From Centroscyllium fabricii (lineage: Eukaryota), in the NCBI GenBank assembly GCA_051313645.2, contig JBNRSN020000028.1, positions 15,066,001 through 15,130,000 on the forward strand: a stretch of 64,000 bases of DNA. The letters run 5' to 3'. Below are positions 1 through 62,837 of the stretch, one piece after another (the first letter of the stretch is position 1; each line of letters starts with the position of its first letter). Under the pieces are notes generated by a model. The model was not told where the DNA came from. It searched no databases and worked only from the letters and a program-made list of their open reading frames with translations. The position numbers were made by a program, and so were the translations under genes.

Positions 1-587
1 CTCTCCCGAAATGGAGGCCAATCTGGAAGGCAATGATGGGAAGGCCTCAATGTTGTTGTTTTTGCCGGATGCTTGGCCTCCCTTTCCTCTCCTCCGTCCT
101 CTCTCCCGAGGCACCTCTGCTTTACAAAGTATTCGAAGGGATGAATCCCAGCACTGAGTTCAGCAGTAAATTTAACTCTTCTGTAACTGAGCTTCAGGTG
201 GCAGAACGCAATGTCCAGAATGTAGGCAACCGTAGTTCTCCGAAGTCCGCTCCACAGCTAAGACTCACTCTACCCGAGTTTCCAGAAGAGAATACATCAT
301 CTACAAGGCAGGGGAACGCCCAAACCCATTGCCTCTCCAGGAGCTCAGACAGCAACCACTCCTTCGTAGTAATGAGTAGTAAGTAGAATGATCCGGCCAC
401 TGCCTGGTCTCAGCACCCAGCTTATAAGCCGACTAGATAGATTAGTGCTAACCAATAAGAATGCAGGTATAGAGAACGAGGAACCCACAGGTATGTGCAC
501 AGGTAATTGAGGTATAATGAACCAAAACAGAGAACAAAACATAGAATTCCAAAATGGATTCCTTAAAGGGGAATGCCATCTGTGACA
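1..587. mobile_element. Possible LTR (retroelement terminus) abutting the satellite
   Basis: Unique sequence ending ...TGTGACA (TGTCACA on the minus strand, an LTR-like TG...CA end) directly against the first satellite unit; contains TATAA (~423) and CCAAT (~452) motifs; no coding homology recognised. Confidence 0.3.
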
Positions 588-3500
588 GGAGTCCGTGGTG
601 AGATGGGGATTGAGTGTGTTGTCACTGTGACTTGTATTAGCAGGAGTCCGTGTTGAGGAGGGGATTGAGTGTGTTGCCAGTGGGTCTTGTATTAGCATGG
701 ACCGTGGTGAGGCGGGGATTGAGTGTGTTGTCAGTGTGTCTTGTATCAGCAGGTGTCCGTGGTGAGGAAGGGATTGAGTGTGTTGTCAGTGTGTCTTGTA
801 GTAGCAGGAGTCCGTGTTGAGGAGGGGATTGAGCGCGTTGTCAGTGTGTCTTGTATTAGCAGGAGTCCGTGTTGAGGAGGTGATTGAGTGTGTTGCCAGT
901 GTGTCTTTTATCAGCAGGAGTCCGTGGTGAGGTGGGGATTGAGTGTGTTGTCAGTGTGTCTTGAATTAGCAGGAGTCCGTGGTGAGATTGAGATTGAGTG
1001 TGTTGCCAATGGGTCTTGTATTAGCAGGAGTCCGTGTTGAGGAGGGGATTCAGTGTGTTGCCAGTGGGTCTTGTATTAGCAGGGTCCGTGGTGAGGAGGG
1101 GATTCAGTGTGTTGTCAGTGTGTCTTGTATCAGCAGGAGTCCGTGGTGAGGAGGGGATTGAGCGTGTTGTCAGTGTGTCTTGTATTAGCAGGAGTCCGTG
1201 GTGAGGAGGGGATTGAGTGTGTTGTCAGTGTGTCTTGTATTAGCAGGAGTCCGTGGTAAGGAGGGGATTGAGTGTGCTGTCAGTGTGTCTTGTATTAGCA
1301 GGGGTCCGTGGTGAGGAGGGGATTGAGGGTGTTGTCAGTGTGTCTTGTATTAGCAGGAGTCCGTGGTGAGATGGGGATTGAGTGTTTTGTCAGTGTGTCT
1401 TGTATTAGCAGGGTCCGTGTTGAGGAGGGGATTGAGTGTGTTGTCAGTGTGTCTTGTATTAGCAGGAGTCCGTGTGGAGTAGGGGATTGTGGGTGTTGTC
1501 AGTGTGTTTTGTATAGCAGGGGTCCCTGGTGAGGAGGGGATTGAGTGTGTTGTCAGTGTGTCTTGTATTAGCAGGGTCCGTGTTGAGGAGGGGATTGAGT
1601 GTGTTGTCAGTGTGTCTTGTATTAGCAGGGGTCCGTGGTGAGGAGGAGATTCAGTGTGTTGTCAGTGTGTCTTGAATTAGCGGGGTCCATGGTGAGGAGC
1701 GGATTGAGTGTGTTGTCAGTGTGTCATGTATTTGCAGGGTCCGTGGTGAGGAGGGGATTGAGTGTGTTGTCAGTGTGTCTTTTACTAGGAGGGTCCGTGG
1801 TGAGGATGGGATTGAGTGTGTTGTCAGTGTGTCTTGAATTAGCAGGAGTCCGTGGTGAGGAGGGGATTGAGTGTGTTGTCAGTGTGTCTTGTATTAGCAG
1901 GAGTCCCTGGTGAGGAGGGGATTGAATGTGTTGTCAGTGTGTCTTGTATTAGCAGGAGTCCGTGGTGAGGAGGGGATTGAGTGTGTTGTCAGTGTGTCTT
2001 GCATTAGCAGGGGTCCGTGGTGAGGAGGGGATTGAGCGTGTTGTCAGTGTGTCTTGTATTGGCAGGAGTCCGTGGTGAGGAGGGGATTGAGTGTGTTGTC
2101 AGTGTGTCTTGTATTAGCAGTGCTCCGTGGTGAGGAGAGGATTGAGTGTGTTGTCAGTGTGTCTTGTATTAGCAGGAGTCCGTGGTGAGCAGGGGTTTGA
2201 GTGTGTTGTCAGTGTGTCTTGTATCAGCAGGGTCCGTGGTGAGGATGGGACTGAGTGTGTTGTCAGTGTGTCTTGTATTAGCAGGGTCCGTGGTGAGGAG
2301 GCGATTGAGTGTGTTGTCAGTGTGTCTTGTATTAGCAGGGGTCCGTGGTGAGGAGGTGATTGAGTGTGTTGTCAGTGTGTCTTGTATTAGCAGGGTCCGT
2401 GGTGAGATGGGGATTGAGTGTGTTGTCAGTGTGTCTTGTATTAGCAGGCTCCGTGGTGAGATGGGGATTGAGTGTGTTGTCAGTGTGTCTTCTATTAGCA
2501 GGAGTCCATGGTGAGGAGGGGATTGAGTGTGTTGCCTGTGGGTCTTGTATTAGCAGGGTCCGTGGTGAGGAGATGATTGAGTGTGCTGCCAGTGGGTCTT
2601 GTATTAGCAGGGGTCCGTGGTGAGGAGCGGATTGAGTGTGTTGTAAGTGTGCCTTGTATTAGCAGGAGTCCGTGGTGAGGAGGAGATTGAGTGTGTTGTC
2701 AGTATGTCTTGTATTAGCAGGAGTCCGTGGTTAGGAGGGGATTGAGTGTGTTGTCAGTGTGTCTTTTATTAGCAGGGGTCCGTGGTGAGGAGGGGATTGA
2801 GTGTGTTGTCTGTGTGTCTTCTATCAGCAGGGTCCGTGGTGAGGAGGAGATTGAGTGTGTTGTCAGTGTGTCTTGTATTAGCAGGAGTCCGTGGTGAGGA
2901 GGAGATTGAGTGTGTTGTCAGTGTGTCTTGTATTAGCAGGGGTCCGTGTTGAGGAGGGGATTGAGTTTCTTGTCAGTGTGTCTTGTATTAGCAGGAGTCC
3001 GTGTTGAGGAGGGGATTGAGTGTGTTGTCAGTGTTTCTTGTATTAGAGGAGTCCGAGGTGAGATGGGGATTCAGTGTGTTGTCAGTGTGTCTTGTATTAG
3101 CAGGAGTCCGTGTTAAGGAGGGGATTGAGTGTGTTGCCACTGGGTCTTGTATTAGCAGGGTCCGTGGTGAGGAGGGGATTGAGTGTGTTGTCAGTGTGTC
3201 TTGTATCAGCAGGTGTCCGTGGTGAGGAAGGGATTGAGTGTGTTGTCAGTGTGTCTTGTAGTAGCAGGAGTCCGTGTTGAGGAGGGGATTGAGTGTGTTG
3301 CCAGTGTGTCTTGTATCAGCAGGAGTCCGTGGTGAGATGAGGATTGAGTGTGTTGTTGTGGGTCTTGTATTAGCAGGGTCCGTGGTGAGGAGGGGATTGA
3401 GTGTGTTGTCAGTGTGTCTTGTATCAGCAGGAGTCCGTGGTGAGGAGGGAATTGAGCGTGTTGTCAGTGTGTCTTGTATTAGCAGGAGTCCGTGGTGAGA

Positions 3501-6500
3501 TGAGGATTGAGTGTGTTGTTGTGGGTCTTGTATTTGCAGGGTCCGTGGTGAGGAGGGGATTGAGAGTGTTGTCAGTGTGTCTTCTATCAGCAGGAGTCCG
3601 TGGTGAGGAGGGAATTGAGCGTGTTGTCAGTGTGTCTTGTATTAGCAGGAGTCCGTGTTAAGGAGGGGATTGAGTGTGTTGCCAGTGGGTCTTGTATTAG
3701 CAGCGTCCGTGGTGAGGAGGGGATTGAGTGTGTTGTCCGTGGTTCTTATATTAGCAGGGATCCGTGGTGAGGAGGTGATTGAGTGTGTTGTCAGTGTGTC
3801 TTGTATTAGCAGGGATCCGTGGTGAGGAGGTGATTGAGTGTGTTGTCAGTGTGTCTTGTATTAGCAGGATCCGTGGTGAGGAGGGGATTGAGTGTTTTGT
3901 CAGTGTGTCTTGTATTAGCAGGGTCCGTGGTGAGGAGGGTATTGAGTGTGTTGTCAGTGTGTCTTGTATTAGCAGGGCCCGTGGTGAGTTGGGGATTGAG
4001 TGTGTTGTCAATGTGTCTTCTATTAGCAGGAGTCCATGGTGAGGAGGCGATTGAGTGTGTTGTCATTAGGTCTTGTATCAGCAGGGTCCGTGGTGAGGAG
4101 CGAATTGAGTGTGTTGTAAATGTGTCTTGTATTAGCAGGAGTCCGTGGTGAGGAGGAGATTGAGTGTTTTGTCAGTGTGCCTTGTATTAGCAGGAGTCCG
4201 TGGCGAGGAGGGGATTAAGTGTGTTGTCAGTGTGTCTTGTATTAGCAGGAGTCCGTTGTTAGGAGGGGATTGAGTGTGTTGTCAGTGTGCCTTGTATTAG
4301 CAGGGGTCCGTGGTGAGGAGGGGATTGAGTGTGTTGTCAGTATGTCTTGAATTAGCGGGGTCCGTGGTGAGGAGGGGATTGAGTGTGTTGTCAGTGTGTC
4401 GTGTATTTGCAGGGTCCGTGGTGAGGAAGCGATTGAGTGTGTTGTCAGTGTGTCTTGAATTAGCAGGAGTCCGTGGTGAGGAGGGGATTGAGTGTGTTGT
4501 CAGTGTGTCTTGCATTAGCAGGGGTCCGTGGTGAGGAGGGGATTGAGCGTGTTGTCAGTGTGTCTTATATTGGCAGGAGTCCGTGGTGAGGAGGGGATTG
4601 AGTGTGTTGTCAGTGTGTCTTGTATTAGCAGTGGTCCGTGGTGAGGAGAGGATTGAGTGTGTTGTCAGTGTGTCTTGTATTAGCAGGAGTCCGTGGTGAG
4701 CAGGGGTTTGAGTGTGTTGTCAGTGTGTCTTGTATCAGCAGGGTCCGTGGTGAGTAGGGTATTGAGTGTGTTGTCAGTGTGTCTTGTATTAGCAGGGTCC
4801 GTGGTGAGGAGGCGATTGAGTGTGTTGTCAGTGTGTCTTGTATTAGCAGGGGTCCGTGGTGAGGAGGCGATTGAGTGTGTTGTCAGTGTGTCTTGTATTA
4901 GCAGGGGTCCGTGGTGAGGAGGTGATTGAGTGTGTTGTCAGTGTGTCTTGTATTAGCAGGGTCCGTGGTTAGATGGGGATTGAGTGCGTTGTCAGTGTGT
5001 CTTGTATTAGCAGGGTCCGTGGTGAGGACGGGTTTGATTGTGTTGTCAGTGTGTCTTGTATTAGCAGGGTCCGTGGTGAGGAGGGTATTGAGTGTGCTGT
5101 CAGTGTGTCTTGTATTAGCAGTGTCCGTGGTGAGATGGGGATTGAGTGTGTTGTCAGTGTGTCTTCTATTAGCAGGAGTCCATGGTGAGGAGGAGATTGA
5201 GTGTGTTGCCAGTGGGTCTTTTATTAGCAGGGTCCGTGGTGAGGAGATGATTGAGTGTGTTGCCAGTGGGTCTTGTATTAGCAGGGGTCCGTGGTGAGGA
5301 GCGGATTGAGTGTGTTGTAAGTGTGTCTTGTATTAGCAGGAGTCCGTGGTGAGGAGGAGATTGAGTGTGTTGTCAGTGTGTCTTGTATTAGCAGGAGTCC
5401 CTGGTGAGGAGGGGATTGAATGTGTTGTCAGTGTGTCTTGTATTAGCAGGAGTCCTTGGTGAGGAGGGGATTGAGTGTGTTGTCAGTGTGTCTTGCATTA
5501 GCAGGGGTCCGTGGTTAGGAGGGGATTGAGCGTGTTGTCAGAGTCTCTCATATTGGCAGGAGTCCGTGGTGAGGAGGGGATTGAGTGTGTTGTCAGTGTG
5601 TCTTGTACTAGCAGTGGTCCGTGGTGAGGAGAGGATTGAGTGTGTTGTCAGTGTGTCTTGTATTAGCAGGAGTCCGTGGTGAGCAGGGGTTTGAGTGTGT
5701 TGTCAGTGTGTCTTGTATCAGCAGGGTCCGTGGTGAGCAGGGGATTGAGTGTGTTGTCAGTGTGTCTTGTATTAGCAGGGTCCGTGTTGAGGAGGCGATT
5801 GAGTGTGTTGTCAGTGTGTCTTGTATTAGCAGGGGTCCGTGGTGAGGAGGTGTTTGAGTGTGTTGTCAGTGTGTCTTGTATTAGCAGGGTCCGTGGTTAA
5901 ATGGGGATTGAGTGCGTTGTCAGTGTGTCTTGTATTAGCAGGGTCCGTGGTGAGGACGGGTTTGATTGTGTTGTCAGTGTGTCTTGTATTAGCAGGGTCC
6001 GTGGTGAGGAGGGTATTGAGTGTGCTGTCAGTGTGTCTTGTATTAGCAGTGTCCGTGGTGAGTTGGGGATTGAGTGTGTTGTCAGTGTGTCTTCTATTAG
6101 CAGGAGTCCATGGTGAGGAGGAGATTGAGTGTGTTGCCAGTGGGTCTTGTATTAGCAGGGTCCGTGGTGAGGAGATGATTGAGTGTGTTGCCAGTGGGTC
6201 TTGTATTAGCAGGGGTCCGTGGTGAGGAGCGGATTGAGTGTGTTGTAAGTGTGTCTTGTATTAGCAGGAGTCCGTGGTGAGGAGGAGATTGAATGTGTTG
6301 TCAGTATGTCTTGTATTAGCAGGAGTTCGTGGTTAGGAGGGGATTGATTGTGTTGTCAGGGTGTCTTGTATTAGCAGGGGTCCGTGGTGAGGAGGGGATT
6401 GAGTGTGTTGTCAGTGTGTCTTGTGTCAGCAGGGTCCGTGGTGAGGAGGAGATTGAGTGTGTTGGCAGTGTGTCTTGTATTAGCAGGAGTCCGTGGTGAG

Positions 6501-9500
6501 GAGGAGATTGAGTGTGTTGTCAGTGTGTCTTGTAATAGCAGGGGTCCGTGTTGAGGAGGGGATTGAGTTTGTTGTCAGTGTGTCTTGTATTAGAGGAGTC
6601 CGAGGTGAGATGGGGATTCAGTGTGTTGTCAGTGTGTCTTGTATTAGCAGGAGTGCGTGTTAAGGAGGGGATTGAGTGTGTTGCCAGTGGGTCTTGTATT
6701 AGCAGGGTCCGTGGTGAGGAGGGGATTGAGTGTGTTGTCAGTGTGTCTTGTATCAGCAGGTGTCCGTGGTGAGGAAGGGATTGAGCGTGTTGTCAGTGTG
6801 TCTTGTAGTAGCAGGAGTCCGTGTTGAGGAGGGGATTGAGTGTGTTGCCAGTGTGTCTTGTATCAGCAGGAGTCCGTGGTGAGGAGGGGATTGAGTGTGT
6901 TGTCAGTGTGTCTTGTATTAGCAGGAGTCCGTGGTGTGATGAGAATTGAGTGTGTTGTTGTGGGTCTTGTATTAGCAGGGTCCGTGGTGAGGAGGGGATT
7001 GAGTGTGTTGTCAGTGTGTCTTGTATCAGCAGGAGTCCGTGGTGAGGAGGGAATTGAGCGTGTTGTCAGTGTGTCTTGTATTAGCAGGAGTCCGTGTTAA
7101 GGAGGGGATTGAGTGTGTTGCCAGTGGGTCTTCTATTAGCAGGGTCCGTGGTGAGGAGGGGACTGAGTGTGTTGTCAGTGTGTCTTGTATTAGCAGGAAT
7201 CCGTGGTGAGGAGGTGATTGAGTGTGTTGTCAGTGTGTCTTGTATTAGGAGGGTCCGTGGTGAGGAGGGGATTGAGTGTGTTGTCAGTGTGTCTTGTATT
7301 AGCAGAGTCCGTGGTGAGTTGGGGATTGAGTGTGTTGTCAGTGTGTCTTCTATTAGCAGGAGGCCATGGTGAGGAGGGGATTGAGTGTGTTGTCATTGGG
7401 TCTTGTATTAGCAGGGTCCGTGGTGAGGAGCGAATTGAGTGTGTTGTAAGTGTGTCTTGTATTAGCAGGAGTCCGTGGTGAGGAGGAGATTGAGTGTGTT
7501 GTCAGTGTGTCTTGTATTAGCAGGAGTCCGTGGCGAGGAGGGGATTAAGTGTGTTGTCAGTGTGTCTTGTATTAGCAGGAGTCCGTGGTTAGGAGGGGAT
7601 TGAGTGTGTTGTCAGTGTGTCTTGTATTAGCAGGGGTCCGTGGTGAGGAGGGGATTGAGTGTGTTGTCAGTGTGTCTTGTATCAGCAGGGTCCGTGGTGA
7701 GGAGGGGATTGAGTGTGTTGTCAGTGTGTCTTCTATTAGCAGGAGTCCGTGGTGAGGAGGAGATTGAGTGTGTTCTCAGTGTGTCTTGTATTAGCAGGGG
7801 TCCGTGTTGAGGAGGGAATTGAGTTTGTTGTCAGTGTGTCTTGTATTAGCAGGAGTCCGTGTTGAGGAGGGGATTGAGTGTGTTGTCAGTGTGTCTTGTA
7901 TTAGAGGAGTCCGTGGTGAGATGGGGATTGAGTGTGTTGTCAGTGTGTCTTGTATTAGCAGGAGTCCGTGTTAAGGAGGGGATTGAGTGTGTTGCCAGTG
8001 GGTCTTGTATTAGCAGGGTCCGTGGTGAGGAGGGGATTGAGTGTGTTGTCAGTGTGTCTTGTATCAGCAGGTGTCCGTGGTGAGGAGGGGATTGAGCGTG
8101 TTGTCAGTGTGTCTTGTATTAGCAGGAGTCCGTGTTGAGGAGGGGATTGAGTGTGTTGCCAGTGTGTCTTGTATCAGCAGGAGTCCGTGGTGAGGAGGGG
8201 ATTGAGTGTGTTGTCAGTGTGTCTTGTATTAGCAGGAGTCCGTGGTGAGATGAGGATTGAGTGTGTTGCCAGTGGGTCTTGTATTTGCAGGGCCCGTGGT
8301 GAGGAGGGGATTGAGTGTGTTGTCAGTGTGTCTTGTATCAGCAGGAGTCCGTGGTGAGGAGGGGATTGAGCGTGTTGTCAGTGTGTCTTGTATTAGCAGG
8401 AGTCCGTGGTGAGGAGGAGATTGAGTGTGTTGTCAGTATGTCTTGTATTAGCAGGAGTCCGTGGTTAGGAGGGGATTGAGTGTGTTGTCAGTGTGTCTTT
8501 TATTAGCAGGGGTCCGTGGTGAGGAGGGGATTGAGTGTGTTGTCTGTGTGTCTTCTATCAGCAGGGCCCGTGGTGAGGAGGAGATTGAGTGTGTTGTCAG
8601 TGTGTCTTGTATTAGCAGGAGTCCGTGGTGAGGAGGAGATTGAGTGTGTTGTCAGTGTGTCTTGTATTAGCAGGGGTCCGTGTTGAGGAGGGGATTGAGT
8701 TTCTTGTCAGTGTGTCTTGTATTAGCAGGAGTCCGTGTTGAGGAGGGGATTGAGTGTGTTGTCAGTGTGTCTTGTATTAGAGGAGTCCGAGGTGAGATGG
8801 GGATTCAGTGTGTTGTCAGTGTGTCTTGTATTAGCAGGAGTCCGTGTTAAGGAGGGGATTGAGTGTGTTGCCACTGGGTCTTGTATTAGCAGGGTCCGTG
8901 GTGAGGAGGGGATTGAGTGTGTTGTCAGTATGTCTTGTATCAGCAGGTGTCCGTGGTGAGGAAGGGATTGAGTGTGTTGTCAGTGTGTCTTGTAGTCGCA
9001 GGAGTCCGTGTTGAGGAGGGGATTGAGTGTGTTGCCAGTGTGTCTTGTATCAGCAGGAGTCCGTGGTGAGATGAGGATTGAGTGTGTTGTTGTGGGTCTT
9101 GTATTAGCAGGGTCCGTGGTGAGGAGGGGATTGAGTGTGTTGTCAGTGTGTCTTGTATCAGCAGGAGTCCGTGGTGAGGAGGGAATTGAGCGTGTTGTCA
9201 GTGTGTCTTGTATTAGCAGGAGTCCGTGGTGAGATGAGGATTGAGTGTGTTGTTGTGGGTCTTGTATTTGCAGGGTCCGTGGTGAGGAGGGGATTGAGAG
9301 TGTTGTCAGTGTGTCTTCTATCAGCAGGAGTCCGTGGTGAGGAGGGAATTGAGCGTGTTGTCAGTGTGTCTTGTATTAGCAGGAGTCCGTGTTAAGGAGG
9401 GGATTGAGTGTGTTGCCAGTGGGTCTTGTATTAGCAGCGTCCGTGGTGAGGAGGGGATTGAGTGTGTTGTCCGTGGGTCTTGTATTAGCAGGGATCCGTG

Positions 9501-12500
9501 GTGAGGAGGTGATTGAGTGTGTTGTCAGTGTGTCTTGTATTAGCAGGGATCCGTGGTGAGGAGGTGATTGAGTGTGTTGTCAGTGTGTCTTGTATTAGCA
9601 GGATCCGTGGTGAGGAGGGGATTGAGTGTGTTGTCAATGTGTCTTGTATTAGCAGGGTCCGTGGTGAGGAGGGTATTGAGTGTGTTGTCAGTGTGTCTTG
9701 TATTAGCAGGGCCCGTGGTGAGTTGGGGATTGAGTGTGTTGTCAATGTGTCTTCTATTAGCAGGAGTCCATGGTGAGGAGGGGATTGAGTGTGTTGTCAT
9801 TAGGTCTTGTATCAGCAGGGTCCGTGGTGAGGAGCGAATTGAGTGTGTTGTAAATGTGTCTTGTATTAGCAGGAGTCCGTGGTGAGGAGGAGATTGAGTG
9901 TTTTGTCAGTGTGCCTTGTATTAGCAGGAGTCCGTGGCGAGGAGGGGATTAAGTGTGTTGTCAGTGTGTCTTGTATTAGCAGGAGTCCGTTGTTAGGAGG
10001 GGATTGAGTGTGTTGTCAGTGTGCCTTGTATTAGCAGGGGTCCGTGGTGAGGAGGGGATTGAGTGTGTTGTCAGTATGTCTTGAATTAGCGGGGTCCGTG
10101 GTGAGGAGGGGATTGAGTGTGTTGTCAGTGTGTCTTGTATTTGCAGGGTCCGTGGTGAGGAAGCGATTGAGTGTGTTGTCAGTGTGTCTTGAATTAGCAG
10201 GTGTCCGTGGTGAGGAGGGGATTGAGTGTGTTGTCAGTGTGTCTTGCATTAGCAGGGGTCCGTGGTGAGGAGGGGATTGAGCGTGTTGTCAGTGTGTCTT
10301 ATATTGGCAGGAGTCCGTGGTGAGGAGGGGATTGAGTGTGTTGTCAGTGTGTCTTGTTTTAGCAGTGGTCCGTGGTGAGGAGAGGATTGAGTGTGTTGTC
10401 AGTGTGTCTTGTATTAGCAGGAGTCCGTGGTGAGCAGGGGTTTGAGTGTGTTGTCAGTGTGTCTTGTATCAGCAGGGTCCGTGGTGAGGAGGGTATTGAG
10501 TGTGTTGTCAGTGTGTCTTGTATTAGCAGGGTCCGTGGTGAGGAGGCGATTGAGTGTGTTGTCAGTGTGTCTTGTATTAGCAGGGGTCCGTGGTGAGGAG
10601 GCGATTGAGTGTGTTGTCAGTGTGTCTTGTATTAGCAGGGGTCCGTGGTGAGGAGGTGATTGAGTGTGTTGTCAGTGTGTCTTGTATTAGCAGGGTCCGT
10701 GGTTAGATGGGGATTGAGTGCGTTGTCAGTGTGTCTTGTATTAGCAGGGTCCGTGGTGAGGACGGGTTTGATTGTGTTGTCAGTGTGTCTTGTATTAGCA
10801 GGGTCCGTGGTGAGGAGGGTATTGAGTGTGCTGTCAGTGTGTCTTGTATTAGCAGTGTCCGTGGTGAGATGGGGATTGAGTGTGTTGTCAGTGTGTCTTC
10901 TATTAGCAGGAGTCCATGGTGAGGAGGAGATTGAGTGTGTTGCCAGTGGGTCTTTTATTAGCAGGGTCCGTGGTGAGGAGATGATTGAGTGTGTTGCCAG
11001 TGGGTCTTGTATTAGCAGGGGTCCGTGGTGAGGAGCGGATTGAGTGTGTTGTAAGTGTGTCTTGTATTAGCAGGAGTCCGTGGTGAGGAGGAGATTGAGT
11101 GTGTTGTCAGTGTGTCTTGTATTAGCAGGAGTCCCTGGTGAGGAGGGGATTGAATGTGTTGTCAGTGTGTCTTGTATTAGCAGGAGTCCTTGGTGAGGAG
11201 GGGATTGAGTGTGTTGTCAGTGTGTCTTGCATTAGCAGGGGTCCGTGGTGAGGAGGGGATTGAGCGTGTTGTCAGTGTCTCTCATATTGGCAGGAGTCCG
11301 TGGTGAGGAGGGGATTGAGTGTGTTGTCAGTGTGTCTTGTATTAGCAGTGGTCCGTGGTGAGGAGAGGATTGAGTGTGTTGTCAGTGTGTCTTGTATTAG
11401 CAGGAGTCCGTGGTGAGCAGGGGTTTGAGTGTGTTGTCAGTGTGTCTTGTATCAGCAGGGTCCGTGGTGAGTAGGGGATTGAGTGTGTTGTCAGTGTGTC
11501 TTGTATTAGCAGGGTCCGTGGTGAGGAGGCGATTGAGTGTGTTGTCAGTGTGTCTTGTATTAGCAGGGGTCCGTGGTGAGGAGGTGTTTGAGTGTGTTGT
11601 CAGTGTGTCTTGTATTAGCAGGGTCCGTGGTTAGATGGGGATTGAGTGCGTTGTTAGTTTGTCTTGTATTAGCAGGGTCCGTGGTGAGGACGGGTTTGAT
11701 TGTGTTGTCAGTGTGTCTTGTATTAGCAGTGTCCGTGGTGAGATGGGGATTCAGTGTGTTGTCAGTGTGTCTTCTATTAGCAGGAGTCCATGGTGAGGAG
11801 GAGATTGAGTGTGTTGCCAGTGGGTCTTGTATTAGCAGGGTCCGTGGTGAGGAGATGATTGAGTGTGTTGCCAGTGGGTCTTGTATTAGCAGGGGTCCGT
11901 GGTGAGGAGCGGATTGAGTGTGTTGTAAGTGTGTCTTGTATTAGCAGGAGTCCGTGGTGAGGAGGAGATTGAATGTGTTGTCAGTATGTCTTGTATTAGC
12001 AGGAGTTCGTGGTTAGGAGGGGATTGATTGTGTGGTCAGGGTGTCTTGTATTAGCAGGGGTCCGTGGTGAGGAGGGGATTGAGTGTGTTGTCAGTGTGTC
12101 TTGTGTCAGCAGGGTCCGTGGTGAGGAGGAGATTGAGTGTGTTGTCAGTGTGTCTTTTATTAGCAGGAGTCCGTGGTGAGGAGGAGATTGAGTGTGTTGT
12201 CAGTGTGTCTTGTAATAGCAGGGGTCCGTGTTGAGGAGGGGATTGAGTTTGTTGTCAGTGTGTCTTGTATTAGAGGAGTCCGAGGTGAGATGGGGATTCA
12301 GTGTGTTGTCAGTGTGTCTTGTATTAGCAGGAGTGCGTGTTAAGGAGGGGATTGAGTGTGTTGCCAGTGGGTCTTGTATTAGCAGGGTCCGTGGTGAGGA
12401 GGGGATTGAGTGTGTTGTCAGTGTGTCTTGTATCAGCAGGTGTCCGTGGTGAGGAAGGGATTGAGCGTGTTGTCAGTGTGTCTTGTAGTAGCAGGAGTCC

Positions 12501-15500
12501 GTGTTGAGGAGGGGATTGAGTGTGTTGCCAGTGTGTCTTGTATCAGCAGGAGTCCGTGGTGAGGAGGGGATTGAGTGTGTTGTCAGTGTGTCTTGTATTA
12601 GCAGGAGTCCGTGGTGTGATGAGAATTGAGTGTGTTGTTGTGGGTCTTGTATTAGCAGGGTCCGTGGTGAGGAGGGGATTGAGTGTGTTGTCAGTGTGTC
12701 TTGTATCAGCAGGAGTCCGTGGTGAGGAGGGAATTGAGCGTGTTGTCAGTGTGTCTTGTATTAGCAGGAGTCCGTGTTAAGGAGGGGATTGAGTGTGTTG
12801 CCAGTGGGTCTTCTATTAGCAGGGTCCGTGGTGAGGAGGGGACTGAGTGTGTTGTCAGTGTGTCTTGTATTAGCAGGAATCCGTGGTGAGGAGGTGCTTG
12901 AGTGTGTTGTCAGTGTGTCTTGTATTAGGAGGGTCCGTGGTGAGGAGGGGATTGAGTGTGTTGTCAGTGTGTCTTGTATTAGCAGAGTCCGTGGTGAGTT
13001 GGGGATTGAGTGTGTTGTCAGTGTGTCTTCTATTAGCAGGAGTCCATGGTGAGGAGCGGATTGAGTGTGTTGTCATTGGGTCTTGTATTAGCAGGGTCCG
13101 TGGTGAGGAGCGAATTGAGTGTGTTGTAAGTGTGTCTTGTATTAGCAGGAGTCCGTGGTGAGGAGGAGATTGAGTGTGTTGTCAGTGTGTCTTGTATTAG
13201 CAGGAGTCCGTGGCGCGGAGGGGATTAAGTGTGTTGTCAGTGTGTCTTGTATTAGCAGGAGTCCGTGGTTAGGAGGGGATTGAGTGTGTTGTCAGTGTGT
13301 CGTGTATTACCAGGGGTCCGTGGTGAGGAGGGGATTGAGTGTGTTGTCAGTGTGTCTTGTATCAGCAGGGTCCGTGGTGAGGAGGGGATTGAGTGTGTTG
13401 TCAGTGTGTCTTCTATTAGCAGGAGTCCGTGGTGAGGAGGAGATTGAGTGTGTTCTCAGTGTGTCTTGTATTAGCAGGGGTCCGTGTTGAGGAGGGAATT
13501 GAGTTTGTTGTCAGTGTGTCTTGTATTAGCAGGAGTCCGTGTTGAGGAGGGGATTGAGTGTGTTGTCAGTGTGTCTTGTATTAGAGGAGTCCGTGGTGAG
13601 ATGGGGATTGAGTGTGTTGTCAGTGTGTCTTGTATTAGCAGGAGTCCGTGTTAAGGAGGGGATTGAGTGTGTTGCCAGTGGGTCTTGTATTAGCAGGGTC
13701 CGTGGTGAGGAGGGGATTGAGTGTGTTGTCAGTGTGTCTTGTATCAGCAGGTGTCCGTGGTGTGGAAGGGATTGAGTGTGTTGTAAGTGTGTCTTGTAGT
13801 AGCAGGAGTCCGTGGTGAGGAGGGGATTGAGCGTGTTGTCAGTGTGTCTTGTATTAGCAGGAGTCCGTGTTGAGGAGGGGATTGAGTGTGTTGCCAGTGT
13901 GTCTTGTATCAGCAGGAGTCCGTGGTGAGGAGGGGATTGAGTGTGTTGTCAGTGTGTCTTGTATTAGCAGGAGTCCGTGGTGAGATGAGGATTGAGTGTG
14001 TTGCCAGTGGGTCTTGTATTTGCAGGGCCCGTGGTGAGGAGGGGATTGAGTGTGTTGTCAGTGTGTCTTGTATCAGCAGGAGTCCGTGGTGAGGAGGGGA
14101 TTGAGCGTGTTGTCAGTGTGTCTTGTATTAGCAGGAGTCCGTGGTGAGGAGGGGATTGAGTGTATTGTCAGTGTGCCTTGTATTAGAAGGAGTCCGTGGT
14201 AAGGATGGGGTTGAGTGTGCTGTCAGTGTGTCTTGTATTAGCAGGGGTCCGTGGTGAGGAGGGGATTGAGGGTGTTGTCAGTGTGTCTTGTATTAGCAGG
14301 AGTCCGTGGTGAGGAGGGGATTGAATGTGTTGTCAGTGTGTCTTGTATTAGCAGGAGTCCGTGGCGAGGAGGGGATTAAGTGTGTTGTCAGTGTGTCTTG
14401 TATTAGCAGGAGTCCGTGGTTAGGAGGGGATTGAGTGTGTTGTCAGTGTGTCTTGTATTAGCAGGGGTCCGTGGTGAGGAGGGGATTGAGTGTGTTGTCA
14501 GTGTGTCTTGTATTAGCAGGAGTCGGTTGTGAGGAGGGGATTGAGTGTGTTGTCAGTGTGTCTTGTATTAGCAGGAGTCCGTGGCGAGGAGGGGATTAAG
14601 TGTGTTGTCAGTGTGTCTTGTATTCGCAGGAGTCCGTGGTGAGGAGGGGATTGAGTGTGTTGTCAGTGTGTCTTGTGTCAGCAGGGTCCGTGGTGAGGAG
14701 GAGATTGAGTGTGTTGTCAGTGTGTCTTGTATTAGCAGGGGTCCGTGGTGAGGAAAGGATTGAGTGTGTTGTCAGTGTGTCTTGTATTAGCAGGGGTCCG
14801 TGGTGAGGAAAGGATTGAGTGTGTTGTCAGTGTGTCTTGTATTAGCAGGAGTCCGTGGTGAGGAGGGGATTGAGTGTGTTGTCAGTGTGTCTTGTATTAG
14901 CAGGGGTCCGTGTTGAGGAGGGGTTTGAGTGTGTTGTCAGTGTGTCTTGTATTAGCAGGGTCCGTGGTGAGGAGGGGATTGAGTGTGTTGTCAGTGTGTT
15001 TTGTATCAGCAGGTGTCCGTGGTGAGGAAAGGATTGAGTGTGTTGTCAGTGTGTCTTGTATTAGCAGGAGTCCGTGTTGAGGAGGGGATTGAGTGTGTTG
15101 CCAGTGGGTTTTGTATTAGCAGGGTCCTTGGTGAGGAGGGGATTGAGTGTGTTGTCAGTGTGTCTTGTATCAGCAGGAGTCCGTGGTGAGGAGGGGATTG
15201 AGCGTGTTGTCAGTGTGTCTTGTATTAGCAGGAGTCCGTGGTGAGGAGGGGATTGAGTGTGTTGTCAGTGTGTCTTGTATTAGCAGGAGTCCGTGGTAAG
15301 GAGGGGATTGAGGGTGTTGTCAGTGTGTCTTGTATTAGCAGGAGTCCGTGGTGAGGAGGGGATTGAGTGGTGTTTTCAGTGTGTCTTGTATTAGCAGGAG
15401 CCGTGGTGAGGAGGCGATTGAGTGTGTTCCCAGTGTGTCTTGTATCAGCAGGAGTCCATGGTGAGGACGGGATTGAGGGGGATGTCAGTGTGTCTTGTAT

Positions 15501-16894
15501 TAGCAGGGTCTGTGTTGAGGAGGGGATTGAGCGTGTTGTCAGTGTGTCTTGTATTAGCAGGGTCCGTGGTGAGGAGGGGATTGAGTGTGTTGTCAGTGTG
15601 TCTTGTATTAGCAGGAGTCCGTGGTGAGCAGGGGATTGAGTGTGTTGTCAGTGTGTCTTGTATCAGCAGGGTCCGTGGTGAGGAGGGTATTGAGTGTGTT
15701 GTCAGTGTGTCTTGTATTAGCAGGGTCCGTGGTGAGGAGGGGATTGAGTGTGTTGCTAGTGGGTCTTGTATTAGCAGGTGTCCGTGGTGAGGAGGGGATT
15801 GAGTGTTTTGTCAGTGTGTCTTGTATTAGCAGGAGTCCGTGGTGAGGAGGGGATTGAGTGTGTTGTCAGTGTGTCTTGTATTAGCAGGAGTCCGTGGTGA
15901 GGAGGGGATTGAGTGTGTTGTCAGTGTGTCTTGTATTAGCAGGGTCCGTGGTGAGGAGGAGATTGAGTGTGTTGTCAGTGTGTCTTGTATTAGCAGGAGT
16001 CCGTGGTGAGATGGGGATTGAGGGTGTTGTCAGTGTGTCTTGTATTAGCAGGAGTCCGTGGTGAGGAGGGGATTGATTGTGTTGCCAGTGGGTCTTGTAT
16101 TAGCAGTGTCGGTGGTGAGGAAGGGATTGAGTGTGTTGCCAGTGTGTCTTGTATTAGCAGGAGTCCGTGGTGAGGAGGGGATTGAGGGTGTTGTCAGTGT
16201 GTCTTGTATTAGCAGGAGTCCGTGTTGAGTAGGGGATTGAGTGTGTTGCCAGTGGGTCCTGTATTAGCAGTGTCGGTGGTGAGGAAGGGATTGAGTGTGT
16301 TGCCAGTGTGTCTTGTATTAGCAGGAGTCCGTGGTGAGGAGGAGATTGAGTGTGTTGTCAGTGTGTCTTTTATCAGCAGGAGTCCATGATGTGGAAGGGA
16401 TTGAGTGTGTTGCCAGTGTGTCTTGTATTAGCAGGAGTCCGTGGTGAGGAGGGGATTCAGCGTGTTGTCAGTGTGTCTTGTATTAGCAGGAGTCCGTGTT
16501 GAGGAGGGGATTGAGTGTGTTGTCAGTGTGTCTTGTATTAGCAGGGTCCGTGTTGAGGAGGGGATTGAGTGTGTTGTCAGTGTGTCTTGTATTAGCAGGA
16601 GTCCGTGGTGAGGAGGGGATTGAATGTGTTGTCAGTGTGTCTTGTATTAGCAGGGTCCGTGGTGAGGAGTGGATTGAGTGTGTTGTCAGTGTGTCTTGTA
16701 TCAGCAGGAGTCCGTGTTGAGGAGGGGATTGAGTGTGTTGCCAGTGTGTCTTGTATTAGCAGGAGTCCGTGGTGAGGAGGGGATTGAGTGTGTTGTCACT
16801 GTGTCTTGTATTAGCAGGAGTCCGTGGTGAGGAGGGCATTGAGTGTGTTGTCAGTGTGTCTTGTATTAGCAGTGTCCGTGGTGAGGAGGGGATT
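588..16894 (+). repeat. 54/55-bp tandem satellite, about 300 copies
   Basis: Consensus GAGTGTGTTGTCAGTGTGTCTTGTATTAGCAG-GAGTCCGTGGTGAGGAGGGGATT repeated continuously; the 54-bp variant reads CAGGGTCC. All ORFs in this interval are translations of the repeat. Confidence 0.99.
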
Positions 16895-16895
16895 T

Positions 16896-17196
16896 CCCCA
16901 AACCGAGCAGGTGACGGCGGCGGAGGGACAATCGGTTCAAATCCGGTGCGATGCGACCACCAGGAGCAGTGAATGATTTTGTGGTACCGCCAATTACCGG
17001 GCCGGGCACCGCAATTCACAATCTCCGCCAATCAGTAATACAGCCGACGGGAGCGGGGGGTTCAAGTTATTCGTTGACAGAAGGAGGAGTTATAACAGTT
17101 TCGGTGTGCGGGAAACCGCGGCTCCAGTCTCCAGGGGTGTTGCTGTGCGAATACGGACATTGGGGCAAAGGGTGAGAAATCCTGTACAGTAAACCT
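16896..17196 (+). pseudogene. TCR V pseudogene (family of the 56.6-kb V), fused to the satellite end
   Basis: Reads QTEQVTAAEGQSVQIRCDATTRSSE, then after a frameshift ILWYRQLPGRAPQFTISANQ*...FKLFVDRRRSYNSFG; collinear with the 56606 V (EGQSIEIQSNATTSG...WYRQL...FRLFIDPTRSYNSLG); decayed RSS remnant ending ...TGTACAGTAAACC. Confidence 0.85.
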
Positions 17197-27887: not shown

Positions 27888-28317
27888 ATGGCGCGGGTTG
27901 AGCTGCTCCTGATGTCCATTGTAATAGGTAGATGGTGATATGTGTTCCCTCTGCTGGAGTGAATATTGCTAATTAACAGAGGCATTAACCGATAATTTTA
28001 TTCATTGTTACAGGTAAAATCCAGGGGAGTTCGGTAACGCAGCCTCCAGATGAGGTGAAGGTTTACGAAGGGGAAAATCCTCAGTTGAGCTGCAATTACA
28101 AGACTAGTTCGGCTGATCCGGATCGTTACTGGTACCGGTTGTACCTGAACCAGGCACCACAGTTTATCTTGTACCGTGATAACACCAGGGGAAGGGATGC
28201 CGAGTTTGCGAAAGGAAAATTCGACGCTCGCCATTTCCGTCAATATCAAGTTTTTCCTTTATCAATTTCTGCGGCAGAGACTGAAGACAGCGCCGTCTAT
28301 TTCTGCGGACTGGGGAT
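27888..28317 (+). CDS. Apparently functional TCR alpha/delta V segment (leader 27888-27927, V exon 28014-28317)
   Basis: Leader MARVELLLMSIVI, GT..AG phase-1 intron, open exon GKIQGSSVTQPPDEVKVYEGENPQLSCNYKTSSADPDRYWYR...EDSAVYFCGLG with Cys, Trp, Cys. Confidence 0.93.
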
Positions 28318-28356
28318 CACGGTGCTTCAAAACTGCTCGACTTCCGTACAAAAACC
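28318..28356 (+). other. 23-RSS
   Basis: CACGGTG - 23 nt - ACAAAAACC. Confidence 0.95.
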
Positions 28357-29269: not shown

Positions 29270-32200
29270 CTCAATCAGCGGAAACAGTTTCGCTCTACCT
29301 ACCCTATCAGTTCCCCTTAAAATCTTGAAAGCTTCGAACATATCCCCCATAACCCTATACATTCCGTAACAAACAACCTAGTTTGTGTCATCTCTCCTCG
29401 TAAGTTAACCCTTGAAGTCCAGTAAATCTACTGTGCACTCCCTCCAAGGCCAATACATCCTTCCTAGGATGTGGTGCCTCGAGCTGCTCACAGTACTCCA
29501 GGTCTGGTCTAACCAGGGTTTGTATAGCGGTACCATAACTACAACCCCCTTGTACTCTAGTCCTCTGGATATAAAGGCCAACATTCCATTAGCCTTTCTG
29601 ATTATTTTCTGTACCGGTCCATGACATTTTAATGATCCATGTACCTGGACCCCAAGTCTCTTTGAACCGCCACTGTTTCTAGTTTTTCACCATTTAGAAA
29701 GTGCTCTGTTCTATAATTTTTAGTTTCAAAGTGGATAACCTCACACTTGCCTACATTGAATTTCATTTGTCGCTGTTTTGCCCATTCAGTTAATCTATTA
29801 ATATCTCCTTGTAATTGTATTCCTCCATCTACACTGCTTCCAATAGCGCCAATCTTTGTGTTGCCGGCAAAGTTGGATATGTGACTTTCTATCCCACCAT
29901 CTACACCTTTAATAAATACAATGAATATATGAGACCCCAACACAGATCCTTGCGAGATATCAATTGGCGTATCTGTCCTGTCAATTAGAGAACATGCCCA
30001 TTACCACTACTCTCAGTATCCTGCCACTCAGCCCATTAGAGAACCTGCCCATTACCCCTACTCTCTGTCGCCTGCCCCTCAGCCCATTAGAGAACCTGCC
30101 CATTACCCCAACTCACTGTCTCCTGCCCCTCAGCCCATTAGAGAACCTGCCCATTACCACTAATCTCTCACTCATGCCCCTCCGCCCATTAGAGAACCTG
30201 CCCATTACCCCTACTCTCTCTCTCCTACCACTCAGCCCATTAGAGAACCTGCTCATTACCCCTACTCCCTGTCTCCTGCCCCTCAGCCCATTAGCGAACC
30301 TGCCCATTACCCCTACTCTCTGTCTCCTGCCCCTCAGCCCATTAGAGAACCTGCCCATTACCCCTACTCTCTGTCTCCTGCCCCTCAGCCCGTTAGAGAA
30401 CCTGCCCATTACCCCTACTCTCGGTCTCCTGCCCATCAGCCCATTAGAGAACCTGCCCATTACCCCTACTCTCACTCTCCTGCCCCTCAACCCATTAGAG
30501 AACCTGCCCATTACCCCTACTCCCTGTCTCCTGTCCCTGAGCATATTAGAGAACCTGCCCATTACCACTACTCCCTGTCTCCTGCCCCTCAGCCCATTAG
30601 AGAACCTGCCCATTACCCCCACTCTCTGTCTCCTGCCCCTCAGCCCATTAGAGAACCTGCCCATTACCCCTACTCTCTGTCTCCTGCCCCTCAGCCCATT
30701 AAAGAACCTGCCCATTACCCCTACTCCCTGTCTCCTGCCCCTCAGCCCATTAGAGAACCTGCCCATTACCCCTACTCTCTCTCTCCTGCCCCTCAGCCCA
30801 TTAGAGAACCTGCCCATTACCCCTACTCTCTCTCTCCTGTCCTTCAGCCCATTAGAGAACCTGCTCATTACCCCAACCACTGTCTCCTGCCGCTCAGCCC
30901 ATTAGAGAACCTTCCCATTACCCCTACTCTCAGTCTCCTGCCCCTCAGCCCATTAGAGAGCCTGCCCATTACCCCTATTCTCTGTCACCTGTCCCTGAGC
31001 CCATTAGAGAACCTGCCCATTGCCCCTGTCTCAGTCTCCTGTCGCTCAGCCCATTAGAGAACCTGCCCATTACCCTTACTCTCTGTATCCTGCCCCACAG
31101 CCCATTAGAGAACCTGCCCATTACCCCTACTCACGCTCTCCTGCCCCTCAGCCCATTAGAGAACCTGCCCATTACCCCTACTCCCGGTCTCCTGCCCCTG
31201 AGCCCATTAGAGAACCTGCCCATTACCCCTACTCTCAGTCTCCTGCCCCTCAGCCCATTGCAGAACCTGCCCATTACCCCTACTCTCTGTCACCTGCCGC
31301 TCAGCACAGTAGAGAACCTGCCCATTATACCGACACCCTCTCTCCTGCTCCTCAGCCCATTTGAGAACCTGTCCATTACCCCTACTTACTGTCTCCTGCC
31401 CCTCAGCCCATTAGAGAACCTGCTCATTACCCCTACTCTATGTCTCCGGCCCCTCAGTCCATTAGAGAACCTGCCCATTACCCCTACTCCCTGTCTCCTG
31501 TCCCTCAGCCCATTAGAGAACCTGCCCATTAACCCTACTCACTGTCTCCTGCCCCTCAGCCCATTAGAGAACCTGCCCATTAACCCTAATCCATGTCTAC
31601 TGCCCCCAGCCCATTAGAGAACCTGCCCATTACCCCTACTCTCTCTCTCTCCTGTCCCACAGCCAATTAGAGAACCTGCCCATTAACCCTACTCGCTGTC
31701 TCCTGCCCCACAGCCCGTTAGAGAACCTGCCCATTACCCCTACTCCCTGTCTACTGCCCCCAGCCCATTAGAGAACCTGCCCATTACCCCTACTCTCTCT
31801 CGCTCCTGTCCCACAGCCCATTAGAGAACCTGCCCATTATCCCTACTCTCTGTCTCCTGCCCCTCAGCCCGTTAGAGAACCTGCCCATTACCCCTACTCT
31901 CTGTCTCCTGTCCCTGAGCCCATTAGAGAACCTGCCCATTACCCCTACTCTCTGTCTCCTGCCCCTCAGCCCATTAAGGAACATGCCCATTACCCCTACT
32001 CCCTGTCTCCTGCCCCTCAGCCCATTAGAGAACCTGCCCATTACCCCTACTCTCTCTCTCCTGCCCCTCAGCCCATTAGAGAACCTGCCCATTACCCCTA
32101 CTCTCTCTCTCCTGTCCTTCAGCCCATTTAAGAACCTGCTCATTACCCCAACCACTGTCTCCTGCCACTCAGCCCATTAGAGAACCTTCCCATTACCCCT

Positions 32201-35200
32201 ACTCTCAGTCTCCTGCCCCTCAGCCCATTAGAGAGCCTGCCCATTACCCCTATTCTCAGTCTCCTGTCCCTGAGCCCATTAGAGAACCTGCCGATTGCCC
32301 CTGTCTCAGTCTCCTGTCGCTCAGCCCATTAGAGAACCTGCCCATTACCCCTACTCTCTGTATCCTGCCCCACAGCCCATTAGAGAACCTGCCCATTACA
32401 CCTACTCACTCTGTCCTGCCCCTCAGCCCATTAGAGAACCTGCCCATTACCCCTACTCCCTGTCTCCTGCCCCTGGGCCCATTAGAGAACCTGCCCATTA
32501 CCACTACTCTCAGTCTCCTGCCCCTCAGCCCATTGGAGAACCTGCCCATTACCCCTACTCTCTGTCACCTGCCGCTCAGCCCATTAGAGAACCTGCCCAT
32601 TACCCCTACTCTCTGTCACCTGCCGCCCAGCACAGTAGAGAACCTGCCCATTACACCGACACCCTCTCTCCTGCTCCTCAGCCCATTTGAGAACCTGTCC
32701 ATTACCCCTACTTACTGTCTCCTGCCCCTCAGCCCATTAGAGACCCTGCTCATTACCCCTACTCTATGTCTCCGGCCCCTCAGTCCATTAGAGAACCTGC
32801 CCATTACCTGTACTCCCTGTCTCCTGCCCCTCAGCCCATTAGAGAACCTGCCCATTACCCCTACTCACTGTCTCCTGCCCCTCAGCCCATTAGAGAACCT
32901 GCCTATTACCCCTACACCCTGTCTCCTGCCCCCAGCCCATTATAGAACCTGCCCATTACCCCTACTCTCTCTCTCTCCTGTCCCACAGCCCATTAGAGAA
33001 CATGCCCGTTACCCCTAATCTCTGTCTCCTGCCCCTCAGCCCATTAGAGAACCTGCCCATTACCCCTACTCGCTGTCTCCTGCCCCACAGCCCATTAGAG
33101 AACCTGCCCATTATCCCTACTCTCTGTCTCCTGCCCCTCATCCCGTTAGAGAACCTGCCCATTACCCCTACTCTCTGTCTCCTGTTGCTCAGCCCATTAG
33201 AGAACCTGCCCATTACCCCTACTCTCTCTCTCCTGCCCCTCAACCCATTAGAGAACCTGCCCATTACCCCTACATCTGACTCCTGTCCCTGAGCCCATTA
33301 GAGAACCTGCCCATTACCCCTACTCCCTGTCTCCTGCCCCTCAGCCCATTAGAGAACATGCACATTACCCCCACTCTCTGTCTCCTGCCCCTCAGCCCAT
33401 TAGAGAACCTGCCCAGTACCCCTACTCTCTGTCTCATGCCCCTCAGCCCATTAAAGAACCTGCCCATTACCCCTACTCCATGTCTCCTGCCCCTCAGCCC
33501 ATTAGAGAACCTGCCCATTACCCCTACTCTCTCTCTCCTGCCCCTCAGCCCATTAGAGAACCTGCCCATTACCCCTACTCTCTCTCTCCTGTCCTTCAGC
33601 CCATTAGAGAACCTGCTCATTACCCCAACAACTGTCTCCTGCCACTCAGCCCATTAGAGAACCTTCCCATTACCCCTACTCTCAGTCTCCTGACCCTCAG
33701 CCCATTAGAGAGCCTGCCCATTACCACTATTCTCAGTCTCCTGTCCCTGAGCACTTTAGAGAACCTGCCCATTGCCCCTGTCTCAGTCTCCTGTCGCTCA
33801 GCCCATTAGAGAACCTGCCCATTACCCCTACTCTCTGTATCCTGCCCCACAGCCCATTAGAGAACCTGCCCATTACCCCTACTCACACTCTCCTGCCCCT
33901 CAGCCCATTAGAGAACCTGCCCATTACCCCTACTCCCTGTCTCCTGCCCCTGAGCCCATTAGAGAACCTGCCCATTACGCCTACTCTCAGTCTCCTGCCC
34001 CTCAGCCCATTGGAGAACCTGCCCATTACCCCTTCTCTCTGTCACCTGCCGCTCAGCCCATTAGAGAACATGCCCATTACACCTACTCTCTGTCACCTGC
34101 CGCTCTGCACAGTAGAGAACCTGCCCATTACACCGACACCCTCTCTCCTGCTCCTCAGTCCATTTGAGAACATGTCCATTACCCCTACTTACTGTCTCCT
34201 GCCCCTCAGCCCATTAGAGAACCTGCTCATTACCCCTACTCTATGTCTCCGGCCCCTCAGTCCATTAGAGAACCTGCCCATTACCCCTACTCCCTGTCTC
34301 CTGCCCCTCAGCCCATTAGAGAACCTGCCCATTACCCCTACTCACTGTCTCCTGCCCCTCAGCCCATTAGAGAACCTGCCCATTACCCCTACTCCCTGTC
34401 TCCTGCCCCACAGCCCATTAGAGAACCTGCCCATTACCCCTGCTCTCTCTCTCTCCTGTCCCACAGCCCATTAGAGAACCTGCCTGTTACCCCTACTTTC
34501 TGTCTCCTGCCCCTCAGCCCATTAGAGAACCTGCCCATTACCCCTACTCGCTGTCTCCTGCCCCACAGCCCATTAGAGAAACTGCCCATTATCCCAACTC
34601 TATGTCTCCTGCCCCTCAGCCCATTATAGAACCTGCCCATTACCCCTACTCTCTCTCTCCTGCCCCTCAGCCCATTAGAGAACCTGCCGTTTACCCCTAC
34701 TCCCTGTCTACTGCCCCTCAGCCCATTAGAGAACCTGCTCATTACCCCTACTCTCTGTCACCTGCCGCTCAGCCCGTTAGAGAACCTGCCCATTACCCCT
34801 ACTCACTGTCTACTGCCCCTCAGCCCATTAGAGAACCTGCCCATTACCGCTACTCTCTGTCTCCTGCCCCTCAGCCCATTAGAGAATCTGCTCATTACCC
34901 CTACTCTCTCTCTCCTGCCCCTCAGCCCATTAGAGAACCTGCTCATTACCCCAACTCTTTCTCTCCTGTCCCTCAGCCCATTAGAGAACCTGCCCATTAC
35001 CCCTACTCTCAGTCTCCTGCCCCTCAGCCCATTAGAGAACCTGCCCATTACCCCTACTCTCTCTCTCCTGTCCCTCAGCCCATTATAGAACCTGCCCATT
35101 ACCACTACTCTCTCGCTCCTGCCACTCAGCCCATTAGTGAACCTGCCCATTACCCCTACTCACTGTCTCCTGCCCCTCAGCCCATTAGAGAACCTGCCCA

Positions 35201-38143: not shown

Positions 38144-38182
38144 CACAGTGTTTTAAATCTCATCTGTCTCTGTACAAAAACC
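38144..38182 (+). other. Consensus 23-RSS
   Basis: CACAGTG - 23 nt - ACAAAAACC. Confidence 0.97.
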
Positions 38183-56488: not shown

Positions 56489-56925
56489 ATGAATGAAATT
56501 GTAACTTTCACATGTTTGATTTTCGGTGAGTATTATTGGCAGAAAAGCGTTCGCCGTTAAAATTTATTTCTTTTGTCTGATTTTCCATCTGTTTTATATC
56601 GACAGTTATCGGAGGCGAGGCTGTGATCCACCAACCACAGCAGGTGTTTGCACCAGAGGGACAATCGATTGAAATCCAGAGCAACGCGACCACCAGCGGC
56701 ACTGAGAGAATCTTCTGGTACAGACAACTACAGAACCGTAGCCCGACATTTATCATATCTGCTATCCAGGGCAACGCCACTGATGGACGATTCAGACTCT
56801 TCATCGACCCAACAAGAAGTTATAACAGTCTCGGTCTGGACAGCACCGGGGTATCAGATGCTGGAGTGTATCACTGTGCAGTGAGGCACCGTGTGTCAAA
56901 GGCTGAGCGCTCCAGTACAATATCT
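56489..56925 (+). CDS. TCR V segment, open but lacking the first conserved Cys (leader 56489-56525, V exon 56606-56886, RSS 56887-56925)
   Basis: Leader MNEIVTFTCLIF + GTGAGT; exon IGGEAVIHQPQQVFAPEGQSIEIQSNATTSGTERIFWYRQ...SDAGVYHCAVR (AGC at the Cys position); RSS CACCGTG-23-ACAATATCT. Confidence 0.85.
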
Positions 56926-60872: not shown

Positions 60873-61063
60873 AATTCTCTTTATTACTTACTTTGCTCGT
60901 GTAACAGCGTTTGTAAGTTTTATTATATATTAATTGTTAATAAAAGGAAATGCGTGTTAGAATTAACAGTAGAAAGGTTAACCATCAATACAGGGACCAG
61001 TTCAGACCCGTCCCTGATCACAATGTTCCCCTGACGCGCTGATCTGTTGAGCGAGGCTCTGAC

Positions 61064-62799: not shown

Positions 62800-62837
62800 G
62801 GTTTTTGTCCGGGATCCGCTGTAACTGCAGCAGTGTG
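62800..62837 (-). other. RSS with 22-nt spacer
   Basis: CACACTG - 22 nt - ACAAAAACC on the minus strand. Confidence 0.92.

Follow-up and report, generated by a model that had tools for sequence, protein, structure and literature searches.

A locus-specific satellite in a shark, probably founded on the acceptor and opening codons of a TCR-alpha-type V pseudogene

The window analysed is a stretch of 64,000 nucleotides from Centroscyllium fabricii, positions 15,066,001 to 15,130,000 of the contig referred to below as C800. It contains a cluster of V segments with 23-RSSs on both strands, and two tandem arrays that are central to this work. The features used below are as follows (window coordinates).

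1..587, no strand assigned: 3′ end of a TG...CA element inserted in the array, recognised by comparison with paralogous copy C
588..16894, plus strand: final block (of five) of the 55-bp array, with 298 units (TRF and unit counts)
16841..16872, plus strand: 32 nt of intron sequence from the last unit, with the tandem acceptor TAGCAG at its end; paralogs L006 and L007 have their single acceptor at the homologous position
16873..17155, plus strand: TCR-alpha-type V exon, a pseudogene (paralog L004 matches V-set; TCR alpha chains are the best fit for the related V at 56608)
17156..17194, plus strand: dead 23-RSS with heptamer GACATTG (CAC lost), 23-nt spacer and nonamer ACAGTAAAC
28014–28356: open V exon with a good 23-RSS
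29984..35849, minus strand: control array of 115 copies of 51 bp, a 17-codon piece of a LINE reverse transcriptase (TRF; LINE copy L102)
37840–38182: open V exon with a good 23-RSS
56489..56925, plus strand: related V serving as register reference; its leader is 37 nt, its intron 80 nt, and its V exon is open
61064–61409, minus strand: open V exon with a good 23-RSS
62799–63138, minus strand: open V exon with a good 23-RSS

V pseudogenes at about 22.5, 24.0, 24.8, 48, 50.8 and 58 kb, in both orientations, are interspersed with the four open V segments.

TRF reported window positions 586–16894 as a single array with a period of 55, 298.5 copies and 90% matches. Its units comprise 195 of 55 nt, 99 of 54 nt and 4 of 53 nt. 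The 55-bp unit consists of 32 intronic nucleotides ending TATTAGCAG, followed by 23 exonic nucleotides reading (G)VRGEEGI, which is the division proposed in an initial annotation of the window. That annotation had also described the last unit as running straight into a V pseudogene, and the sequence agrees: the final AG of the array is at 16871–16872, and the last unit continues directly into QTEQVTAAEGQSVQIRC. The first 22 nt of the V exon (16873 on) are the exonic part of this last unit, a 54-nt variant. The exon start of the V at 56606, to which the unit had been aligned, is in register with it, with single-base gaps and 35 nt from AG to CAGGTG in both. The cag|GA GT exon starts cited as a further resemblance are present at 22611 and 48201, on the minus strand.

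Amplification had been put at 16 kb and about 300-fold, a scale that is fourfold too low. The whole window copy, designated A, has 1,284 units (70,560 bp, or 70.6 kb) in five blocks spread over 82.2 kb, and 986 of these units lie upstream of the window together with the leader exon (G000:C800:15000580–15062617). This is the orphaned leader that had been sought upstream; its ATG, at C800:15000580, is 82 kb before the V exon and 65 kb upstream of the window. The original leader intron, given as about 90 nt, measures 77–78 nt when unexpanded, and 78 nt separate the leader donor of copy A from its first acceptor.

In contigs from all four public runs compared, the unit was present at a depth far above that of the V exon (X1: 23,956 versus 50–230), although such a depth is not a copy number, and tandem joints going back 54 were found. 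The array is therefore not an assembly artefact. Small shares of runs X5–X7 also contained the unit at raised depth with tandem joints, a weak hint that a second labelled organism has the 55-bp array. A leader-to-unit contig of run X2 (compared with L034:1691–1860) was about 6% diverged from copy A and had variants in common with run X6; it possibly represents another paralog or population.

The V exon of the window has an extra C in the run 16896–16899, a 1-nt loss after 16972 and a 2-nt loss after 17034, with an in-frame stop after 16973 and a degraded YxC motif. The acceptor-to-exon register is nevertheless in frame, because the 54-nt last unit compensates for the extra C. Judged as a TCR alpha/delta V gene, the 38-nt leader, the stop after 16973 and the heptamer GACATTG mark it as a pseudogene. 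The best 60 of 423 PDB matches to the related V at 56608 were TCR chains, nearly all named alpha; this V has a V-set domain and is 53–57% identical to paralog L004. Homolog searches with the L004 V piece and the 56608 V gave no match at E <= 0.001, and no intact ortholog from another species was seen among their results.

When the genome was searched with the V exon DNA, all seven scored matches fell on contig C800. The array lies directly 5′ of the V exon in three of them: A (the window), B (14.78 Mb) and C (14.90 Mb). A leader search (40 of 150 candidates scored; the 150 of 615 matches listed were all in array loci) found a fourth array copy, D, at 15.17 Mb. The four paralogous copies, within 0.5 Mb of one another, contain 1,284 (A), 1,221 (B), 267 (C) and 269 (D) units, so that array length varies fivefold. 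A and B, whose flanks are 99–100% identical, may be haplotypes assembled in tandem. Copy D stops at a unit end (G000:C800:15187728; L079), with ATT in common, and is followed by sequence 95% identical to window 58563–61556. The junction thus skips the V exon and about 41.7 kb in window terms, a stretch that in the window holds open V genes.

Head-to-tail units were confined to these four copies. An exact 25-mer had 812 forward and no reverse matches in the 7.2-Gb assembly, all 812 of them in the arrays (A 348, B 328, C 57, D 79), and all 34 matches of a junction-spanning 26-mer were likewise in the four arrays; exact probes of this kind would miss diverged copies of the unit. Whether the unit occurs elsewhere had been raised as a check on its origin, and the two probes revealed no other locus.

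The remaining four V exon matches (L004–L007, at 11.07–11.28 Mb) are 3.8–4 Mb from the array and carry the unit once, behind a leader exon and a short intron of 71–77 nt with the unit at its acceptor. Identity to the majority unit is 50/55 in L007 and 47/55 in L006, and in L004 and L005 the AG is gone through a 10-nt deletion. Every array copy reads from its leader through the initial 46 nt of intron into the first unit, and these parts are colinear with the array and the V exon. ATT precedes the unit and also closes it, exactly at both ends. This flanking repeat is only 3 nt long, and in L007 the flanking direct repeat is at best 4 nt (CATT/TATT against CATT), compared with the 5–10 bp of the Haber and Louis model. 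A long near-palindromic A/T-rich stretch lies upstream of paralog L007 (L007:301–480).

The presence of a single copy at the paralog acceptors, together with probe matches only in the four gene copies, therefore indicates that the unit was born in place. The comparison supports a founding of the 55-bp unit in situ from the acceptor and first codons of one V segment. The initial annotation had arrived at in-place amplification of this kind, and had named orthologous V segments with a different acceptor and exon start as evidence that would count against it; the closest paralogs instead hold the unit once, at their own acceptors.

The subfamily has eight members (A, B, C, D and L004–L007), and all are broken. 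Their leaders are 36–38 nt long, with donors GTGAC(T/A), CTGACT or ATGACT; a T occupies donor position −1 in all eight, as against G|GT in the six other window leaders checked. A, B and C have in common the 1-nt loss, the 2-nt loss, the stop and an RSS without CAC, which is thus lost in all three array copies that retain the V exon. The V exon is missing from copy D, and the first acceptor carries a mutation in A, B and D.

Units are 95% identical to the majority unit, against which identities were computed, and 91% identical to one another, whether adjacent or not. Flanking sequence is 83–89% identical to the unexpanded paralogs where homologous, 97–98% identical among A, C and D, and 99–100% identical between A and B. 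This gradient, so far as identity can order events, places the expansion after the split from the paralogs and before the block duplications. Units in duplicated runs number 788/1,284 in A, 710/1,221 in B, 0/267 in C and 74/269 in D, and duplicated blocks reach 111 units, with for example 110 of 111 units identical. By such duplications of multi-kb blocks the array grew from about 270 to about 1,250 units. Unit-level alignment of C or D to A yielded only three short colinear runs each, and the place of D in the order of events is therefore uncertain.

Insertions mark several of these steps. Copy C has the whole of the TG...CA element whose end opens the window: it is 8.4 kb long there and flanked by a 5-bp target duplication, GGAGT. 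Copy A retains no more than its final ~4 kb. The element occupies the same unit in A, B and C. A LINE nested within the copy C element has ORFs matching Exo_endo_phos and RVT_1. In copy B, the element is interrupted at about base 4420 by ~20 kb of array that repeats an upstream stretch (G000:C800:14731983–14762569; L011, L012, L026, L027), which suggests templated insertion or template switching as a candidate cause. A 1-kb insertion has been duplicated together with its block in both A and B. Copy A alone contains a 5.6-kb LTR retrotransposon (G000:C800:15027444–15033073; L021) with an AGTGT target duplication and a 1,221-codon open frame matching protease, RT, RNase H, integrase and chromodomain. 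Its 553-bp LTRs are identical, so its insertion is very recent.

The second array of the window lies 13 kb from the first and arose in the same manner, by amplification of the LINE piece in place. The LINE protein resumes on both sides of the 51-bp repeat (weak RVT_1 match, below the Pfam cut-off), and LINE copy L102 has the 17-codon piece once. The 51-bp array has 151 copies in block B and 108 in block C, and four or more older duplicates at 14.1–14.6 Mb contain it as well. The G-rich strand of the 51-bp array has a G4 score of 1.52, above that of the V-derived unit. More than 10 further arrays occur within the 259 kb scanned, and in the available part of one report some regions of elasmobranch genomes are described as dominated by simple tandem repeats (10.1101/2025.06.08.657570). 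The process amplifies whatever is present, and no special cause is required for its having struck an acceptor. By contrast with the locus-bound 55-bp unit, a 27-bp repeat (GAGACAGGGTCTAGTGTAATATAAACA) is scattered over several distinct sites as arrays of 0.5–11 kb, some in each orientation (L025, L015, L080–L082, L085, L086).

We consider it very probable that the array is a locus-specific satellite derived from one TCR-alpha-type V pseudogene, whose acceptor and opening codons form the unit and have been reiterated in situ between the leader and the V exon. A tandem duplication guided by microhomology likely began the process, the gene was likely dead by then, and the array is likely functionless. 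The first tandem duplication would have used the ATT microhomology, and growth may have followed by unequal exchange or template switching, with instability perhaps promoted by the G-rich strand. No selection would have acted if the gene could no longer splice or rearrange. The whole gene block has been duplicated to four copies of 267–1,284 units each. The order in which the gene died first and the array expanded afterwards is presumed, since the 1-nt, 2-nt and RSS lesions are private to array-bearing copies and undatable relative to the expansion. The in-frame register kept by the 54-nt last unit, the shortness of the ATT repeat and the place of A and G among the more conserved half of unit positions also count against our reading. 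These three inactivating lesions would also fit the reverse order, which we regard as unlikely, in which the gene was functional at the first unit duplication and was killed by its tandem acceptors: use of the first AG would cause read-through into the intron part of the next unit, with loss of frame or a stop. The CRE-like motif ACGTCA at about −170 is compatible with that order as well, being altered in all four array copies and retained in three of the four unexpanded paralogs. All four unexpanded paralogs are broken as well, however, the degenerate donor is common to all eight members, and no intact member of the subfamily was found by DNA or protein search of the genome. There is, finally, almost no prospect that a dispersed satellite or mobile element already in existence landed at the exon start and owes its likeness to an acceptor to chance. 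The 27-bp family, which recurs around the locus, is a precedent for such dispersal, but the 55-bp unit exists as a single colinear copy in four paralogs, no target-site duplication surrounds the array, and the exact probes found nothing beyond the four gene copies and nothing in reverse orientation. The paralog alignment refutes this origin.

An active role for the array, transcribed from the V promoter and serving either as a splicing module with tandem acceptors and 9-nt micro-exons or as a switch-like region targeted by AID, seems highly improbable. YAG is intact in 1,195 of the 1,284 units of A (273 of 298 in the window), and 905 of the 1,284 have G|GTGAG intact as well. The array is rich in G on its sense strand, with a GC skew of about 0.6 and a best 25-nt G4Hunter score of 1.2 for the unit, and AID is active on TCR alpha in nurse shark thymus, according to the accessible part of one study (PMC5931798). 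These properties speak for such a role. The AG, however, has no excess conservation and ranks 7 of 54 dinucleotides; taken singly, its positions do fall in the more conserved half (A rank 9.5 and G rank 23 of 55). Loss of both AGs from TAGCAG occurs in 2 of 3,041 units, where 2.1 were expected, and selection on the acceptor is rejected. The donor-like GT, changed in 15.6% of units, ranks 43 of 54 and is one of the more mutable dinucleotides. The single-copy paralogs already have this GT, which is therefore an inherited exonic look-alike. An intron from unit to unit would measure 46 nt, which is below the usual vertebrate minimum. The micro-exon splicing thought conceivable in the initial annotation is thus unsupported. 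WGCW density is 18.3 per kb in the array against 17.0 per kb in the background, and AGCT is absent, which rules out a reading as an Ig switch-like AID hotspot. The first acceptor is mutated in three of the four copies, and the V of the window, having lost the CAC of its RSS, is unable to join to a J. A coding role is also ruled out, the longest stop-free stretch in the window block being 144 codons. The array is likely without function. A different kind of activity, in which the four co-oriented arrays of 15–70 kb would be recombination hot spots for germ-line duplication and deletion of TCR-alpha V genes in 100-kb blocks, we hold to be unlikely. Copy D lost its V exon at a junction starting exactly at a unit end, as hot spots might produce. 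The duplicates at 14.1–14.6 Mb, which are 90–92% identical, contain no member of this V subfamily, so block duplication ran there without the array. Were the arrays such drivers, the splice site of a dead gene would shape a living repertoire.

Minisatellites whose first monomer spans an exon–intron boundary are described, in the portion of the source available, for human F7 (IVS7, 37 bp, 5–9 copies), IFI6/6-16, CBS (IVS13), LMNB2 and PDGF, all five being donor-side with 5–26 copies (PMC1557585). As in the F7, IFI6 and CBS cases so far as that portion describes them, the shark unit spans an exon–intron boundary and reiterates a splice signal in tandem within an intron. Those repeats concern the 5′ donor of working genes; here the unit is a 3′ acceptor with codons, in a V pseudogene, each array has 267–1,284 copies, and the founding state survives in unexpanded paralogs. 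For the birth of minisatellites, the available part of another account gives the Haber and Louis model, in which a non-repeated sequence is flanked by short direct repeats of 5–10 bp, and also mentions tandem repeats derived from transposable elements (PMC3389668). As in the model thus outlined, a unique stretch bounded by short repeats would have duplicated and then expanded, and the 51-bp LINE array belongs to the transposable-element class. The shark case differs in its substrate, a splice junction, in its exact flanking repeat of 3 nt, and in an array of 70 kb.

The ABCA7 VNTR is reportedly a splicing-modulating repeat in an expressed gene. Tandem repeats that alter the splicing of expressed genes are termed spl-TRs in the part of a report available to us (PMC10078293). 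The 55-bp array resembles these repeats, as they are presented there, in lying in an intron beside splice signals, but a splicing effect is not likely here. Ig switch regions are multi-kb tandem repeats with a G-rich sense strand; they occupy an intron of an antigen-receptor locus, downstream of a promoter and a short exon. The 55-bp array is similarly multi-kb, G-rich on its sense strand and intronic in an antigen-receptor locus; unlike switch regions, it has no WGCW or AGCT enrichment and no constant-region partner, and it derives from a V exon start. The array is a giant satellite on the acceptor side, most likely neutral. A literature search of limited coverage found no acceptor-spanning satellite and none derived from an antigen-receptor gene. 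The earlier remark that no satellite born from an antigen-receptor exon boundary had been described stands within that coverage; its force is reduced by the boundary-spanning minisatellites already in print and by the same process having hit a LINE 13 kb away.

The founding sequence of long tandem repeats is usually lost, which makes their birth hard to study, as stated in the available part of the account of minisatellite birth (PMC3389668). One assembly here preserves a series, with four paralogs at a single copy, two arrays of about 270 and two of about 1,250, together with datable insertions and block duplications. With the parallel LINE case adjacent, the locus offers a test bed for the birth and growth of satellites. 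It is also a natural template for how the spliceosome chooses one 3′ splice site from many identical ones, a mirror-image counterpart to the F7 donor model. A leader and V exon 82 kb apart call for caution in TCR annotation. The array reveals no new function, and its value is as a record of a satellite arising from single-copy gene sequence.

The open V at 56606–56886 and its relatives L053–L059 have Ser in place of the first conserved Cys (QSNA) in seven of eight copies, with Cys only in L056. Beside this V are 79-bp and 107-bp repeats whose copy number differs among paralogs.
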